Of a stretch of DNA of 64,000 bases, positions 1 to 6,310 are shown piece by piece. The notes under the pieces were generated by a model. It was not told the DNA's origin, searched no databases, and worked only from the letters and a program-made list of their open reading frames with translations. The translations under genes and the position numbers were made by a program. The DNA lies in contig JAZDDX010000007.1 of assembly GCA_043809315.1 (NCBI GenBank), positions 32,001-96,000 of the forward strand. The letters are read 5' to 3'. This DNA is from Pseudomonadota bacterium (GTDB taxonomy: Bacteria; Bdellovibrionota_G; JALEGL01; DATDPG01). Numbering within the stretch: the stretch's first letter is position 1; each line of letters begins with the position of its first letter.

Positions 1-311
1 AAGTGTTCGTTTCCCCCGTCTTCAACGTTGATCGCCTGCCAGACCAGATTTCCGTTCTTCATCTCCTTACCGAAGTTCTCCTGAATCGCCTCGCGGGCGA
101 GGTTTTCCAGCTTGTGACATGTGACGCATCGTAGGGAACCGTGGAAGTAATAAACGCGGACAAAGTGTGCCTGGACAGGAATCTTGGGAGCATTCGATTG
201 CGCCGCGGTTTGGGGTAGCTCCGTCCGTTTCGGACGCTGGCCCACCAAGAAAAAGGCGATCCCCAAAACGAGCAAGACGGTCGTCTGAAAAACAATGTCT
301 TTTCGACTCAT
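1..311 (-). CDS. ArsF-like thioredoxin-fold protein with N-terminal membrane anchor (3' truncated; not in the supplied ORF track)
   Basis: Manual translation MSRKDIVFQTTVLLVLGIAFFLVG...VRVYYFHGSLRCVTCHKLENLA...; YYFHxxxRCxTC motif; ATG overlaps the upstream TGA (ATGA). Confidence 0.7.
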   Translation of the reverse strand, partial: MSRKDIVFQTTVLLVLGIAFFLVGQRPKRTELPQTAAQSNAPKIPVQAHFVRVYYFHGSLRCVTCHKLENLAREAIQENFGKEMKNGNLVWQAINVEDGGNEH

Positions 312-727
312 TCCAATTCCTTTCCGGTCAGCCGTTCTTGGCAACCGACGTCGCGCAGAACCGTCTCCATCCGCTCTACAACGGCATCGACGTGGGAGCG
401 GACCACCGGGGTTTCCCCCTTGACCATACCCAGGTTTGTCAGGCGAAGGTGGCGCACTTCGGCAAAGCCTTTTTGTTCCAGCAGGGTGCGGGCGCAATCC
501 TTCTCGCACCCGTCGATCGCCGCGATCGACTCGGCCCCTCGGGCAGCATCCAGGTACATTGGAATTCCGGCACCAATCGCCGCGAGGCAACCGAGACGAA
601 CTTTTTCATGGCGCCCCAGAGCCCGACCGGCCTGATCGGCGATCGCCCCCAGATTCGATGCTCCCGAGCATACGTACAAAAGTGTGACTGCGGTGCCTCC
701 GCACGAACAGGTCGTCCCACCAGCCAC
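308..727 (-). CDS. Putative zinc-binding DGC-domain protein
   Basis: CSGASN, GCLAAIG and AIDGCEKDCA motifs; GTG at 727 just after the upstream stop (ORF track start 760). Confidence 0.8.
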   Translation of the reverse strand: MAGGTTCSCGGTAVTLLYVCSGASNLGAIADQAGRALGRHEKVRLGCLAAIGAGIPMYLDAARGAESIAAIDGCEKDCARTLLEQKGFAEVRHLRLTNLGMVKGETPVVRSHVDAVVERMETVLRDVGCQERLTGKELE

Positions 728-729
728 GT

Positions 730-978
730 TTATTTCTTTGCCGCTGCGTTCATCAGCCATGTCACGATCTCCGATGTTTCCGGAATTCTCCCGGCCGATT
801 TCACCTCGCCGTCCACCACGAGCGCGGGCGTCATCATCACGCGGAATTTCATGATGTCAGCCATGTTCTCCAATTTTTCCAGCTCCACCGTCAACCCCGA
901 GGCCGCCACGGCTTTCTCAGTCTCCGCGTACAGCTTCTTGCACTTTGTGCATCCCGGTCCCAATACCTGGATCTTCAT
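730..978 (-). CDS. Small thioredoxin-like redox-active disulfide protein
   Basis: MKIQVLGPGCTKC...VMMTPALVVDG; GAGG RBS upstream. Confidence 0.9.
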   Translation of the reverse strand: MKIQVLGPGCTKCKKLYAETEKAVAASGLTVELEKLENMADIMKFRVMMTPALVVDGEVKSAGRIPETSEIVTWLMNAAAKK

Positions 979-986
979 CGTTCCTC

Positions 987-2441
987 CTATAAGAGAATGT
1001 TAAACACATATCCGACCACTATGATTCCCGCGCCCACGACGGCTGCGAATGTCACAATGAGCGGAACCTTCAGAACTTTACGTAAAATGATCATCTCCGG
1101 CAGCGACAGGCCGATGACCGACATCATGAATGCCAAGGCCGTGCCCAACGCCGCCCCCTTACCCAACAGCGCCTGCACCACGGGAATGATTCCGGCTGCA
1201 TTGGAATACATGGGAATGCCGATCAGGACGGCGAGCGGAACCGACCACCAGGAATCCTTGCCCATGATGGAAGCCATGAAGTCTTGCGGCACATAGCCGT
1301 GAATCCCAGCACCCACTGCAATACCGGCCAACACGTAGGGCCAGACTCTTCCGACGATCTCTTTGACGGCGTCGCGCCCGAACCTCGCGCGGTCCTCCCA
1401 AGTCACGTTGGTTTCGGCTCCAACAGAAGCTGGTTGTCCCGCGTCGTCCGTCGTCCGATAGACCCATTCCTCGACCCACTTTTCCAAGTGGAGTCTTCCG
1501 ATGACCCACCCGGCTACCATCGCAATGGCTAGGCCGGTACCGAGATAAAGTGCGGCGACCTTCCAGCCAAATAGGCCGAACAGGAGCACCAGCGCCACCT
1601 CGTTGACCATGGGAGCGGAGATCAAGAAGGAAAACGTCACCCCTAGCGGCACCCCGCTGGTCACGAAGCCGATAAAGAGCGGCACGGCGGAGCAGGAGCA
1701 GAACGGCGTCGGGATGCCTAAAATCGCAGCCAGAACATTGCCAACGGCCTCCCGTTTTCCGACCAGGATCCGGCGCGTGCGTTCCGGCGTGAAAAACGAC
1801 CGCAAAACCCCCACTCCGAACACAACCAAGGTGAGCAGCAGGACTACCTTTGGAGCCTCGAATACAAAAAACTCCACGGCAGCGGCTATGTGGCTGCCTG
1901 AAGACATGCCGAGCATCTGGTACGTGAAGAACTTTGAGAAAACCTCAAGATGTCGGTAGACCGCCCACCACACAACGACACCAAGACAAATGAGGAGTAC
2001 CTGAAGCCATCGTCGTGGTGGTTGGTCCTTAGTCGTAAGGAACGCTTCGATGCGGCGGCGTAGCTCGTCCCGTGTCTTTCGGAAAGCGTTGAGCCGATCC
2101 TCTTCCGAGCCTGTCACAGCTGCCGGATCGGGGAGCCCCCAATGGAGACGGCGGGCATTTCCCAGGAATACGGGGCACTCCTCTTCGGCGCACAGGGTGA
2201 TGACCGTATCGACCTCACCGGTGGGTACCTCCGCAACAGCTTTGGAACGATGACCCGAAATATCAATCCCGATCTCCCGCATAATGGTGATGGCTTCCGG
2301 GCGGACAGCGGTCGGCCTCGATCCAGCGGACCAGACTGGAACCGAGGAAGGCAAAATGGAACGTGCAATTCCTTCCGCCATTTGGCTCCGGGCCGAATTC
2401 GCCACGCAAAGGAAAAGGATTCGAGATTCCCGCTCAGTCAC
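987..2441 (-). CDS. Fusion of LMW-PTP-type arsenate reductase (ArsC) and ArsP/DUF318 permease
   Basis: N-terminal [12 protein letters not shown] (CX5R), [17 protein letters not shown]-terminal multi-TM region with [10 protein letters not shown] and GIPMYSNA. Confidence 0.85.
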
Positions 2442-3528
2442 AGGTAGCGCACCTCACGGATTCGACTTTGGCCTTGTCCGACGGGAAGTAACGTGACCGG
2501 AGCCGGAGCGCGACGTTCACCAAGCCGATCAATACTGGCACTTCGACCAGGGGACCGATTACCGCCGCAAAGGCCGCCCCGTGATTGATGCCGAACGTGG
2601 CGATAGCCACAGCGATGGCCAGTTCGAAATTGTTCGATGCCGCGGTGAAGGAAAGGGTTGCCGATTGACCATACGTCGCACCCACCTTCTTGCTCATGAA
2701 GAAGGAGACGAAGAACATGACGACGAAGTAGATGAGGAGCGGGATCGCAATCCGCACCACATCGAACGGGAGTTGCACGATGTACTCCCCCTTGAGCGAG
2801 AACATCACGACGATGGTAAAGAGCAGGGCAATGAGCGTGATCGGGCTGATCTTCGGAATGAACTTTTCGTGATACCAAGTCTTGTTCTTCCACTTGATCA
2901 GCACAAAGCGCGTCGTCACCCCCGCAAGGAATGGAATCCCCAGGTAGATAAAGACGCTCTTGGCGATCTCTCCGATGGTCACATGGACCGCCACGCCCTT
3001 GAGGCCGAACCAGGTCGGCAGCACGGTGATGAATACGTAGGCGTAGACCGAAAAGAAGAGAACCTGGAAGATCGAGTTAAACGCCACCAGACCCGCGCAG
3101 TATTCGGTGTCGCCGTCCGCCAGATCATTCCAGACGATGACCATAGCAATACACCGCGCCAAGCCGATCATGATCAACCCGACCATGTACTCGGGCTTGT
3201 CATGCAAGAAGAGAACGGCGAGACCGAACATCAGAATAGGTCCTACGACCCAGTTCTGAACCAAAGAGAGTGAAAGGACTTTCACATTCTTGAAGACCGG
3301 CCCCATGTCCTCATAACGGACCTTGGCTAGCGGCGGGTACATCATAAGAATAAGGCCGATGGCAATTGGTATTGACGTGGTTCCAACACTAAGACGGTTT
3401 AGCGCCGGAACGACACCAGGAACCAAATAGCCGAGAAACACCCCGAATCCCATCGCAAGAAAGATCCAGAGCGTGAGGAAACGATCTAAGAACGAAAGTG
3501 CTGCAAAAGCTCCTGATTTCACTCTCAC
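2434..3528 (-). CDS. acr3: ACR3-family arsenite efflux transporter
   Basis: [52 protein letters not shown]. Confidence 0.95.
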
Positions 3529-3980
3529 TTTACCCTCCCTGCATCCGCAGACTGCCTAATCGGCTTTGTCGTTCCGCTCTCAAAACAGTCAAGAACCCTG
3601 CAACAGGTTGCTGAAAGGTCTCTCGCTTCGACCGTTGCGGACAATTTTCTGAGCGAAGCCCTTATGCGTTTAAGGTCCCGGATCTTTGCTTCCACCTCAA
3701 CCAGCTTTGCATCGGCCGTTGTTTTCAAATCCCCGCAGGTTCCCCTGGGGCTTACGTTGAGTTCCAGAAGTTCCTTGATCTCCTTCAACGTGAATCCAAG
3801 CTCTTGGGCCCGCTTAACGAACTCGATTCTCCGGCTGTCATCCGGAGCATATTGCCGGTATCCGGTGCCTTTGGACGGTTTTCGGATGATCCCCTTTCGC
3901 TCGTAGAAACGGACCGTTTCCACGCCGACGCCGGATTGTTTTGCTAGATCACCAATCGTGAACTTTCGGCCCGAAGACAT
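3525..3980 (-). CDS. MerR-family metal-responsive transcriptional regulator
   Basis: [46 protein letters not shown]; Cys82, Cys126, Cys127, Cys132. Confidence 0.92.
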
Positions 3981-3986
3981 GGCCGA

Positions 3987-4018
3987 ATGTTACACCCCGT
4001 ACTAAGGTACGGAGTCAA
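3987..4018 (-). promoter_or_regulatory. MerR-type promoter/operator: -35 TTGACT, dyad CCGTAC-N4-GTACGG (3997-4012), 20-bp spacer, -10 TAACAT
   Basis: Minus strand reads TTGACTCCGTACCTTAGTACGGGGTGTAACAT, closely matching the Tn501/Tn21 merT promoter. Confidence 0.85.
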
Positions 4019-4077
4019 GAGGTCAAAACAAAGACATTGGATGTATCGACAATAAAAAGTCAGTTCGATTCGATAGA

Positions 4078-4090
4078 AATCAAAGAATTG
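4078..4090 (+). promoter_or_regulatory. Putative IHF-binding site
   Basis: AATCAAAGAATTG is an exact match to WATCAANNNNTTR. Confidence 0.35.
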
Positions 4091-4102
4091 CGACCGTCAT
4101 TC

Positions 4103-4807
4103 TCACTTCCGTCGGATTCCTTTGAAAAATTCCCTTCGTCGGTGTTTTTCAGTTTCCTGAAAAGCTTCCAACGATTTGAGAAAGGTTTCGCCAAAGCGTT
4201 TCTGGAGCGCCTCGTATACGAGTTTTTCGTGGAGTGCCCCGACACTCAGATGCAATTCGTTCGCTAACTGCCGCACGAAAGAGCTGATTTCCCGGCTATG
4301 GTACCGAGCGATCCCAATCAAAGCCGGCTTCTTCGTGTAATCGAGACGCTTCGCCCTGCCCTGATTCTGCGGCTTCTTCTTACGACGTACATAGACCTCG
4401 GGAGGATTCTCCAGCTCATCAACCAATACCCTTCGAATCACTTCGGAAAGACTGACCGCGTTCTTCTTTGCAACCCCTTCCAATTGACCTTGGGTCCGTT
4501 CATTGATAACCACCCGTAAATTCACGGTCTTATTCTGATTTGACCATTGAGGAGATGGGCCCTTGGGAAGTGATTCTCCCCATCTCATCCCCGTTTCATG
4601 ATCGACCAGGGTTGCATAGATAAACTCCGTGATCGTCTCCCCATAATCCAGCGCTCTCTCACCGAGCGCATTCCGGAATTCCGGCTCCAGCCGAAGAGTC
4701 ATAAAGAGCTTCCGTATGAGCGCGGTGGATAGGCTTGGAAGGATCTGAGTCCGCCGAAGAACCAGGTAATCGGAAAAAGTTGGCTTTTCCTTGGGTGCCC
4801 CCGTCAC
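4103..4807 (-). CDS. Hypothetical DNA-binding protein with ribbon-helix-helix-like segments
   Basis: KTVNLRVVINERTQGQLEGVAKKNAVSLSEVIRRVL is CopG/RHH-like; divergent from the integrase. Confidence 0.55.
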   Translation of the reverse strand: MTGAPKEKPTFSDYLVLRRTQILPSLSTALIRKLFMTLRLEPEFRNALGERALDYGETITEFIYATLVDHETGMRWGESLPKGPSPQWSNQNKTVNLRVVINERTQGQLEGVAKKNAVSLSEVIRRVLVDELENPPEVYVRRKKKPQNQGRAKRLDYTKKPALIGIARYHSREISSFVRQLANELHLSVGALHEKLVYEALQKRFGETFLKSLEAFQETEKHRRREFFKGIRRK

Positions 4808-4899
4808 AGACCCATAAATCTAAAGGAATTCAAGGAGATGCACAATGCACAGAGTACAGACTCTTGTGGCCTTGCATTCGATCTATCGTGGCCGTATGT

Positions 4900-6141
4900 A
4901 TGACTCATAAATACATGCACCTAGTTCGACGAGAGATTGCAACTCGACCCCCGAAAGAGCGGTGGATTCGAATCCATAACCACCCAGGAATTGCCCGCCT
5001 GGAGAAGTGGAACCCTGTTTTAAAGCGATGGATCGATCCACGCCATGATGCCTACTGCCGCCTGAAGGTATTTTGCGCCTACCGGCGAATACGCGTCCTA
5101 GGCAAGAGCACACTCCAAAAGAAGCACTTCCAAACTATTCGCGAAGCCAAAGCCTGGCGGCTGGAGGCCAATCCCGAGCCGACAGCTCGCAAGGCGATCC
5201 AGGTAACGGTTGGGGACGCGATCGAAGGGTGGAGGGAGTGGTCCAAACCTCCAAGGTTTCGAAAGACTTCCTGGCTTCAATACGCCAAAGACGTTCGCCA
5301 CGCGGAGTCCCTCAAAGATGCCCCGATCGAAGGACTGACTGCACAGGATATTGACCGCTGGCTCCAGCACCTCAAAGATCCGTCATATCCCAAACAGAAG
5401 ACACGGGTGTCGTTCGAACGCGAGCTCAGCACACTTCAGACGATCTTCCGATGGTATCGGGAACGTCGAAATGAGAAGTTTCAGCACCCGATCCTGGCCC
5501 GACACAGGCAGGACTCGTACTTTCGGGATCCTCCCCTCGGGGGCATCGAGGTTCTCTCCGCCCATCAGGCGGAGGAATTCTTCGCCCGAATCTCCGCCAG
5601 ACATTCACCCGTCTTTCAGCGGACCGCGGCCCTACAACTCTTCGCCGGCTTACGAATCGGCGAGGCGTGCGGTCTTTATTGGGATTGCGTCGATTTCGAA
5701 GGAAGAACAATCACGGTTCGTCGGTCGTGCATTTGGCCCCAGCCTGCGATGAGGGCAGAGATCCAGGACACGACCAAGACCAGCTCGGTCCGAAGCATCC
5801 CGATCGTAGACCGCCTCTACGATCTTATAGTGACATGGAAAGCCGAAGACGGAGAGATGGAGATCGTCTGCCATAAGGCCGGGCGGCTGATCCGGCGGAA
5901 TACCGTGGCCGGAGCCTACGGGAAGGTGTTCCGACAGCTTGAACTTCGGGTCAAGAGCGTCACCCACATTCTCCGCCGGACGTTTGCCACCCTTCACGCC
6001 GAACAGACCCGAGACCTGGCTGCCACTCAGGCGCTCCTGGGACATACTGACATTCAGACGACGCAGATTTACGCGAAGGTAACAGATGGAGCCGTAAGAA
6101 GGTCGATGCCTGATTTCGCGTTCGGCCGGAGAAAATCCTGA
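4900..6141 (+). CDS. Tyrosine recombinase / phage-type integrase
   Basis: GLRIGE (R), TTKT (K), HILRR (HxxR), LGH, TQIY (Y); start uncertain (4900 or 4915). Confidence 0.92.
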   Translation: MTHKYMHLVRREIATRPPKERWIRIHNHPGIARLEKWNPVLKRWIDPRHDAYCRLKVFCAYRRIRVLGKSTLQKKHFQTIREAKAWRLEANPEPTARKAIQVTVGDAIEGWREWSKPPRFRKTSWLQYAKDVRHAESLKDAPIEGLTAQDIDRWLQHLKDPSYPKQKTRVSFERELSTLQTIFRWYRERRNEKFQHPILARHRQDSYFRDPPLGGIEVLSAHQAEEFFARISARHSPVFQRTAALQLFAGLRIGEACGLYWDCVDFEGRTITVRRSCIWPQPAMRAEIQDTTKTSSVRSIPIVDRLYDLIVTWKAEDGEMEIVCHKAGRLIRRNTVAGAYGKVFRQLELRVKSVTHILRRTFATLHAEQTRDLAATQALLGHTDIQTTQIYAKVTDGAVRRSMPDFAFGRRKS

Positions 6142-6164: not shown

Positions 6165-6218
6165 AATGGTGTTTTGGGTGAGTGTGATCTGAATGTTTTC
6201 AACTGGTTAAGAATTTTT

Positions 6219-6310
6219 TGGCGGAGGAGGAGGGATTCGAACCCCCGATACGAATCTCTTCGTATGCCGGTTTTCAAGACCGGTGCCTTCAACCACTCGG
6301 CCACTCCTCC
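6219..6310 (-). tRNA. tRNA-Ser(TGA)
   Basis: GGAGGAGTGGCCGAGTGG...CCGGT-CTTGAAA-ACCGG, long variable arm, GGTTCGAATCC, encoded CCA. Confidence 0.97.

Follow-up and report, generated by a model that had tools for sequence, protein, structure and literature searches.

A MerR-type regulator at the head of an organoarsenical-type ars operon, and its ars-linked clade, as probable arsenic sensors

The DNA analysed here, referred to as the window, is a stretch of 64,000 nucleotides corresponding to positions 32001-96000 of contig C7 of assembly G000. Its left end (window 1-4018, with a leftward extension on the same contig) carries an arsenic-resistance (ars) operon whose first gene encodes a regulator of the MerR family. 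The operon is composed of the following parts, with positions given in the window unless the contig is named:

3987-4018, minus strand: MerR-type promoter/operator, with TTGACT (4018-4013), a spacer of 20 nucleotides (4012-3993) and TAACAT (3992-3987)
3525-3980, minus strand: merR-like regulator, 151 amino acids (Pfam MerR_1 9.7e-20, MerR-DNA-bind 1.1e-19, and MerR)
2434-3528, minus strand: acr3, arsenite efflux carrier, 364 amino acids (TIGR00832, 456 bits against a cut-off of 282.8)
987-2441, minus strand: arsC::arsP fusion, 484 amino acids (Pfam LMWPc at residues 8-135, ArsP_1 at residues 185-481)
730-978, minus strand: thioredoxin-like protein of the MTH895/ArsE family (arsE), 82 amino acids (TIGR00412, 102 bits against 62; Pfam Thioredoxin_3)
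308-760, minus strand: Cys-rich protein with a DGC domain, 150 amino acids (Pfam DGC 6.3e-23)
1-311, minus strand: 5' part of arsF, the gene extending to C7 31829 (NF040494, full protein 115.6 bits against 60)
C7 31143-31931: arsG, the seventh gene, beyond the left edge of the window (NF040495, 263 bits against 200)

As read from the sequence, merR-like and acr3 (the latter starting with GTG) share a GTGA overlap, acr3 and arsC::arsP overlap by 8 nucleotides, arsC::arsP and arsE are separated by a gap of 8 nucleotides containing GGAGGA, arsE and the DGC gene overlap by 31 nucleotides, and the DGC gene and arsF share an ATGA overlap. These coupled junctions from merR-like to arsF, with arsG located downstream, indicate a single, tightly coupled operon of seven genes. 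The first-pass annotation, made from the sequence alone, had described six co-oriented and coupled genes; all six lie on the minus strand where it placed them, with overlapping or near-abutting junctions, and their number has to be raised to seven, as arsG falls outside the window. With an efflux carrier (Acr3) and an arsenate reductase in one transcription unit, this is an ars operon.

The N-terminal part of the fusion protein is an arsenate reductase of the low-molecular-weight-phosphatase type, possessing Cys12, Cys84 and Cys89, and its C-terminal part is an ArsP-type permease. This fusion is also present in a related genus (genome G004) and is seen again at locus L175 (3572-5029, minus strand). 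The DGC gene, encoding a putative zinc-binding protein, is placed between arsE and arsF. The ArsE, ArsF, ArsG and ArsP families are all represented above NCBIfam or Pfam cut-offs, so that the gene set is of the organoarsenical type, and it is carried on an integrative island of ~9.2 kb at a tRNA-Ser gene. ArsEFG and ArsP are reportedly encoded by organoarsenical resistance genes. Compared to the described ArsEFG/ArsP systems, which are controlled by ArsR, the set found here stands behind a MerR-type regulator, has ArsP fused to an arsenate reductase and carries an inserted DGC gene.

Regarding the promoter, its sequence has the anatomy expected of MerR control, namely, an over-long spacer of 19-20 nucleotides holding a dyad. 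The spacer is one nucleotide shorter (19) when the -10 hexamer is read as GTAACA, and within it lies a 9-nucleotide inverted repeat, ACTCCGTAC-N4-GTACGGGGT, whose arms (3994-4002 and 4007-4015) are 89% complementary. The coordinate 4018, at which the first-pass annotation had closed the operon, is where the -35 hexamer begins, and no standard sigma-70 promoter with a spacer of 16-18 nucleotides was found in 3400-4900. The ATG of the regulator is located 6 nucleotides past the -10 hexamer, suggesting that its mRNA is probably leaderless, and no Shine-Dalgarno sequence is present. A look for sequencing runs covering window 300-4100 returned none. In the regulator's own genome, the operator pattern occurs once at zero mismatches, at the promoter of this operon, and allowing up to three mismatches adds only one place, on contig C35. 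A second acr3, 84% identical (C28 38638-39657), and a second arsC-type gene (C26 26445-26987) were considered as extra targets and rejected, having no adjoining regulator and no match to the operator pattern at either gene.

The regulator has, at its N-terminus, the winged helix-turn-helix typical of MerR, and a long dimerisation helix comes after it; the sequence matches in the PDB at E <= 0.001, 19 in number, all belong to the MerR family. It gives no Pfam match to HTH_5 or HTH_20 and is not a member of the ArsR/SmtB family. An AlphaFold model of the monomer (alignment of 58 sequences, mean pLDDT 80.7) has the MerR topology, with helices at residues 9-16, 20-28, 46-60 and 65-76, a long helix at 82-118, a loop at 119-128 and a short helix at 129-134, being disordered after 136. 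The top Foldseek matches of this model are CadR (6jyw/6jgx), PbrR (5gpe), MerR of Tn501 and CueR. At the level of NCBIfam equivalogs, the regulator scores under every cut-off, reaching 120 bits against 150.85 for MerR (TIGR02051) and falling also under those of ZntR, CadR/PbrR and CueR. Three other members of its clade, defined below, score 128-138 bits to TIGR02051, also under the cut-off.

The cysteines of the regulator are residues 82, 126, 127 and 132, and position 117 is a valine. In the model, C82 opens the long helix and V117 is located near its end; the loop then carries C126 and C127, and the short helix carries C132. The Hg(II) ligands of Tn501 MerR are C82, C117 and C126, a set that is incomplete in the regulator due to the valine at 117. 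In the ungapped HMMER alignment to Tn501 MerR (PDB 5crl, E 6.3e-23), C82 is paired with C82, V117 with C117, C126 with C126 and C127 with P127, exactly as noticed at first pass, where C82 and C126 were described as kept, position 117 as Val, and Cys127 and Cys132 as extra.

No arsR was found among the open reading frames of the island, and a profile search of the whole assembly, which is 96% complete, gave no ArsR-sized protein of the HTH_5 or HTH_20 type, the best matches to these two families (24 and 32 bits, respectively) lying in one open frame of 365 residues. The absence of arsR first remarked for the visible part of the operon thus extends to the rest of the island and, for proteins of ArsR size, to the assembly. 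Similarly, the operon contains no mer genes, and no merA was found in the genome, where the best match has 28% identity.

A protein search returned 2248 matches, the best 120 of which were listed. Among these 120, only P0002, P0003 and P0004 (74-87% identity) have V117 and the CC pair in common with the regulator, and all four of its cysteines are kept in them. The other aligned relatives, at 50-63% identity, possess C82, C117, C127, C132 and usually a C-terminal cysteine. The contig of P0003 was obtained via a separate genome search and belongs to G004, a genome from another genus of the same family, where the same operon is found, headed by a regulator of 87% identity and by the same promoter; this copy has no DGC match by tblastn, no integrase and different flanks. 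The MerRs of a plasmid collection were only of the mer type, with identities of up to 51%, and a MerR termed H10, whose small plasmid comes from an arsenite oxidiser, has a major facilitator superfamily (MFS) pump and a distinct ArsR-family gene as neighbours and was excluded.

The genomic context was sampled at 160 loci, 80 from species genomes, in a scan excluding near kin, and 80 from metagenomes, a set that does not include the contig carrying P0002, the JGI homologue nearest to the regulator. Labels were assigned by tblastn with the ars proteins of the window plus ArsD, ArsA, an ArsI/CadI-type VOC protein, ArsH, aquaporin, MerA and MerC/thioredoxin, the added queries being taken from the loci after their identification with Pfam or NCBIfam. 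As a result, 23 loci were labelled ars, 56 mer, 4 both and 77 neither. A quick maximum-likelihood tree was built with 156 rows (152 of the loci, the window and three database proteins), after a filter on open-reading-frame length had removed eight loci, seven unlabelled and one mer. It contains a clade of 28 rows, with an SH-aLRT support of 99, formed by the window's group of four, 22 ars loci, L010 (which has an ars and a thioredoxin match and is counted as ars-linked) and L067. The other 128 rows comprise all 55 mer loci, 69 unlabelled loci, 3 with both labels and a single ars locus whose label rests on an ArsP-like match of 24% identity; therefore, every mer-linked MerR of this tree falls opposite the ars clade.

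At 23 of the 24 public clade loci, ars genes lie no more than 3 kb away, in nearly every case immediately downstream and on the same strand, compared to 4 of the 128 outside (Fisher's test, p = 4e-22, a value that overstates the linkage because kin are not independent). Linkage of the homologues to ars genes had been named beforehand as a check on which the first-pass reading would stand or fall, and the result supports it. The same 28-row clade was recovered, with UFBoot 99 and SH-aLRT 91 and a bootstrap not fully settled, in a careful tree of 87 rows consisting of the clade and 59 labelled others, unlabelled outsiders being left out. In a FastTree of 272 rows, the clade grows to 145 members with a support of 99 and includes all 116 further database homologues. 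According to the record titles, it ranges over Bdellovibrionota, Nitrospirota/Manganitrophaceae, metagenome-assembled genomes labelled as Pseudomonadota and one metagenome-assembled genome of Flavobacteriaceae. Its cultivable carriers include Bdellovibrio bacteriovorus (record AHI06547.1) and Bacteriovorax sp. BSW11_IV.

About nine gene orders follow the clade regulators: acr3-arsC; VOC-acr3-arsC; VOC-arsC-acr3(-arsH); VOC-aquaporin(-arsC); arsC-acr3(-arsH); arsC-aquaporin-arsH; arsD-arsA; arsE-arsP; and that of the window. These differing orders indicate that the link to ars genes has been maintained through rearrangement, and such variety is more telling than the p value of Fisher's test. 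Among the 67 co-directional open reading frames downstream of the regulator at 21 clade loci, Pfam identified LMWPc in 16, SBF/Acr3 in 13, Glyoxalase in 11, MIP in 5, FMN_red (ArsH) in 5, and ArsA, ArsD, ArsP and Thioredoxin_3 in one each, with neither HTH_5/HTH_20 nor mer families among the 25 most frequent of the 44 families found. In the 135 open reading frames flanking the clade loci, each family is seen at most twice. The most frequent immediate neighbour of the clade regulators is a glyoxalase-fold VOC protein of the ArsI/CadI family (L003, L004, L006-L013, L044 and L082; 11 of the 67 partners), which scored above the NCBIfam cut-off in the three cases checked and is a candidate C-As lyase.

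The clade also differs from the other MerRs at the sensor site, as seen by the conservation of each cysteine in the ars clade (n=145) and in the rest (n=127):

C82: 99% of the clade, 86% of the rest
C117: 97% of the clade, 99% of the rest
C126: 21% of the clade, 0% of the rest
C127 (equivalent of Tn501 C126): 97% of the clade, 99% of the rest
C132: 97% of the clade, 1% of the rest
Tail Cys within 16 residues: 121/145 of the clade, 4/127 of the rest

In addition, the second and third cysteines of the Hg type are spaced by a loop of x9 in 131 clade members compared to x8 in 94 of the others, and the proline following the third cysteine is present in 15 clade members compared to 112 others. The clade signature is, then, C82, C117-x9-C127, C132 and a tail Cys, and these counts suggest that the trigonal thiolate site of MerR was retained in the clade, with a lengthened loop, loss of the Cys-Pro and two additional cysteines. 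The window regulator has C82, C127 and C132 of this signature, as well as C126, and lacks C117 and the tail Cys. This pattern of V117 and vicinal C126-C127 without a tail Cys (C-CCC) is restricted to 4 of the 145 clade members. By its sequence, this sub-branch of four, where C117 and the tail Cys were lost and C126 is present, is a distinct sensor variant (V117, CC-x4-C). Of the traits noted at first pass, V117 with the CC pair is confined to the sub-branch, and C132, described there as a gain of the regulator, turns out to be a hallmark of the whole clade. A MerR outside the clade with merA-type and thioredoxin-type neighbours (L046, 8001-8378) also has a cysteine at the C132 position (CPIIDCF), and hence C132 alone is not fully diagnostic.

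At the DNA level, 21 of 24 ars-clade loci, and also G004, have the motif TTGACTCCGTAC-N4-GTACGG ahead of the regulator gene, and it precedes 69 of the 132 regulators outside the clade that have enough upstream sequence. The start codon follows the motif after 16-18 nucleotides in 14 of the 21 clade loci, compared to mostly 25-41 nucleotides in the mer-linked relatives, where a Shine-Dalgarno-like GGAGG is seen; start codons in this comparison (L002-L082) were picked by a script heuristic. The short distance, corresponding to a start ~6-8 nucleotides past the -10 hexamer in most clade loci, suggests that the mRNAs of the clade are leaderless.

From these features, the regulator is probably a MerR-type activator that senses trivalent arsenicals in the place of ArsR and drives its own operon. 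As relatives of the same clade also precede ars genes in many bacteria, it probably represents an undescribed kind of arsenic sensor. The proposal of the first-pass annotation, that a mercury-type activator was repurposed to arsenic, finds support in the ars linkage, the split from the mer-linked MerRs in the trees, the absence of arsR and the long-spacer promoter, and the binding of an arsenical, its ligands and activation as opposed to plain repression are what we infer from them. The dimer of the regulator would sit on the mer-type dyad within the 19-20-nucleotide spacer of its own promoter, keeping it shut while free of effector. After the binding of a trivalent arsenical by thiolates, the spacer would become under-twisted, allowing RNA polymerase to start. 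As(III) would be the effector, and perhaps Sb(III) or organoarsenicals in trivalent form; the candidate thiolates are C126, C127 and C132, located in the loop and short helix that follow the dimerisation helix, to which the partner subunit would probably contribute its C82. Then, one probably leaderless transcript would deliver the regulator and Acr3, ArsC::ArsP, ArsE, the DGC protein, ArsF and ArsG.

Compared to MerR of Tn501/Tn21 (5crl), the regulator has the same fold and domain order, with 42% identity in the structural alignment and C82 and C126 kept. Its operator dyad is of the same type (the TCCGTAC-N4-GTACGGA class, as in the Tn501 operator), also within a spacer of 19-20 nucleotides. 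The differences are the valine in the position of the Hg ligand C117, the extra C127 and C132, the score under the equivalog cut-off, and its placement as the first gene of an operon of ars genes rather than merTPA, the merR of Tn501 being divergent from its mer genes. In the mer operons of Gram-positive Bacillus, merR is co-transcribed as the first gene, and the regulator is likewise a first gene with its own MerR-type promoter, as for MerR of Bacillus megaterium MB1 (4ua1/4ua2; sequence match E 3e-22); however, the two differ in the cysteines of the effector site and in the genes under their control, and the alignment to 4ua1 ends at residue 115, before the sensor loop.

CadR and PbrR, the best Foldseek matches, have the same sensor region of a loop and a short helix; meanwhile, the regulons of CadR, PbrR, ZntR and CueR consist of metal pumps and not ars genes, and the regulator falls under their NCBIfam cut-offs. 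ArsR acts by de-repression, and the MerR family by activation via DNA distortion. With ArsR/SmtB proteins, the regulator shares the role of an arsenic sensor heading an ars operon, while the folds are unrelated (winged-helix HTH_5 compared to MerR). As described in the available text of PMC11212059, AfArsR from Acidithiobacillus ferrooxidans binds As(III) and Sb(III) through three cysteines within a short stretch of one chain. In sequence, the C126-C127-x4-C132 cluster is comparable to this site.

A narrower proposal is that the sub-branch of the window is an activator selective for trivalent organoarsenicals (methylarsenite, or reduced aromatics of the roxarsone/nitarsone type) over inorganic arsenite. 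Such selectivity would fit the arsP, arsE, arsF and arsG genes of the operon, and it is held here as a tentative and rather doubtful refinement.

It is very unlikely that the regulator is still a sensor of mercury or other soft metals (Hg, Cd, Pb, Zn), with ars genes co-expressed in a general response to thiophilic metals. Hg(II)-MerR is its closest solved relative by sequence, the operator is of the mer type, C82, C117 and the equivalent of C126 are kept in 97% of the clade, and the frequent ArsI/CadI neighbour belongs to a family whose name includes the cadmium-induced protein. Nevertheless, the partners ArsC, Acr3, ArsH, ArsD/ArsA, ArsP and ArsEFG are arsenic-specific families, the 25 most frequent families in the 67 partner open reading frames include none of the mer type, and the genome has no merA. 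Moreover, the regulator has no C117, scores under the cut-offs of MerR, ZntR, CadR and CueR, and belongs to a clade whose sensor site differs from that of the mer-linked MerRs.

A decayed sensor, where the loss of C117 and the tail Cys left the sub-branch with only an autoregulating repressor or a constitutive factor of a mobile island, is hardly probable. It would be in line with the restriction of V117 and the missing tail Cys to 4 of 145 members and with the predicted disorder after residue 136; however, C82, C126, C127, C132 and the whole operon are kept across two genera at 87% identity. In addition, the gain of C126 beside C127 results in three thiols within seven residues, similar to the one-chain, three-Cys As(III) site of AfArsR as it appears in the available text of PMC11212059. 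Equally improbable is a thiol or redox switch, whose four to five cysteines would form disulfides upon thiol depletion by arsenic or oxidants and sense arsenic indirectly, because the linkage is to arsenic genes specifically and not to general oxidative-stress genes, the SoxR model gives 59.6 bits against a cut-off of 116.9 and the cysteines fall in the metal-binding loop of metal-sensing MerRs, despite the Cys-rich C-terminus with a vicinal pair, the thioredoxin-type genes of the operon, and the existence of MerR-family redox sensors, with SoxR and NmlR among the weaker matches.

Several points weigh against the regulator and its clade being arsenic sensors. The operator is common to mer-linked MerRs and consequently does not separate the two groups, and the near-complete retention of all three Hg(II) ligands in the clade means that the clade could respond to Hg(II) or further thiophilic metals, while the window regulator, devoid of the near-invariant C117, could be a weakened sensor. 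Regarding the linkage, the label queries were self-chosen, the 77 unlabelled loci of the 160 include many on short contigs, and L067, a clade member, has no ars gene within 6 kb. The clade of 145 also includes L005, labelled mer from a thioredoxin/MerC-type match alone, the genomic context is known for 26 of its members, and, as the tree is unrooted, "clade" means one side of a branch. Finally, two of the 135 flanking open reading frames are of the ArsR family, one of them (L033:680-997) divergent and ~450 nucleotides upstream, and five other genomes with clade members have ArsR-family genes elsewhere.

To our knowledge, all characterised metal-sensing MerRs respond to metal cations or redox signals. 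The ars operons are described as being under ArsR/SmtB repressors, for example in the available sections of a 2024 review (PMC11672702). No arsenic-sensing MerR was found in the literature searched, which included the available text of PMC1526738, PMC11672702, PMC7965956 and PMC10832572, with most subscription journals outside the search. Similarly, no model of NCBIfam release 20 claims the clade proteins, as scored for the window regulator and three clade members, and their database names are those of MerR-family, Hg(II)-, Zn(II)- or copper-responsive regulators. If the clade does sense metalloids, a well-understood allosteric mechanism would gain a new class of effector, the three-thiolate Hg(II) site being re-tuned through a loop longer by one residue, the loss of the Cys-Pro and the addition of C132 and a tail Cys. 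Metalloid sensing by the clade would also explain the control of arsenic resistance without ArsR in this genome and in many Bdellovibrionota and Nitrospirota, as judged by record titles, and could provide a low-background, activator-type part for arsenic biosensors. The window variant, being on a mobile island, may differ in selectivity; if it does respond to organoarsenicals, it would be the first positively acting sensor of these compounds. The arsC::arsP fusion, in turn, would place reduction and efflux in one polypeptide.

The island that houses the operon and its borders have the following features:

4735-6141, plus strand: tyrosine recombinase (island integrase), 468 amino acids (Pfam Phage_integrase 1.5e-21)
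6219-6310, minus strand: tRNA-Ser(tga), identified with ARAGORN
6218-6235: right-hand attachment (att) repeat, the 3' end of tRNA-Ser, TTGGCGGAGGAGGAGGGA
C7 29002-29019: left att copy of TTGGCGGAGGAGGAGGGA, ~9.2 kb leftward, 18/18 identical
C7 27690-27717: second, degenerate att-like copy, 26/28 identical
4103-4807, minus strand: open reading frame of 234 amino acids located between operon and integrase gene; matches of the ribbon-helix-helix type (DUF6290, RelB and MobA) are weak, all below cut-off

The integrase gene abuts tRNA-Ser(tga). Leftward of the operon, the tRNA-Ser 3' end recurs in two att-like copies, which points to islands arranged in tandem or nested in one another, and an open reading frame of 357 amino acids (C7 27796-28869) is located between the two copies. 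The 5' end of the 234-amino-acid open reading frame overlaps the start region of the integrase by 73 nucleotides. At the far end of the island lies an AbiEi-like/AbiEii toxin-antitoxin pair (C7 29663-31105, corresponding to L001 13663-15105), with AbiEii at 125 bits and AbiEi_4 below cut-off.

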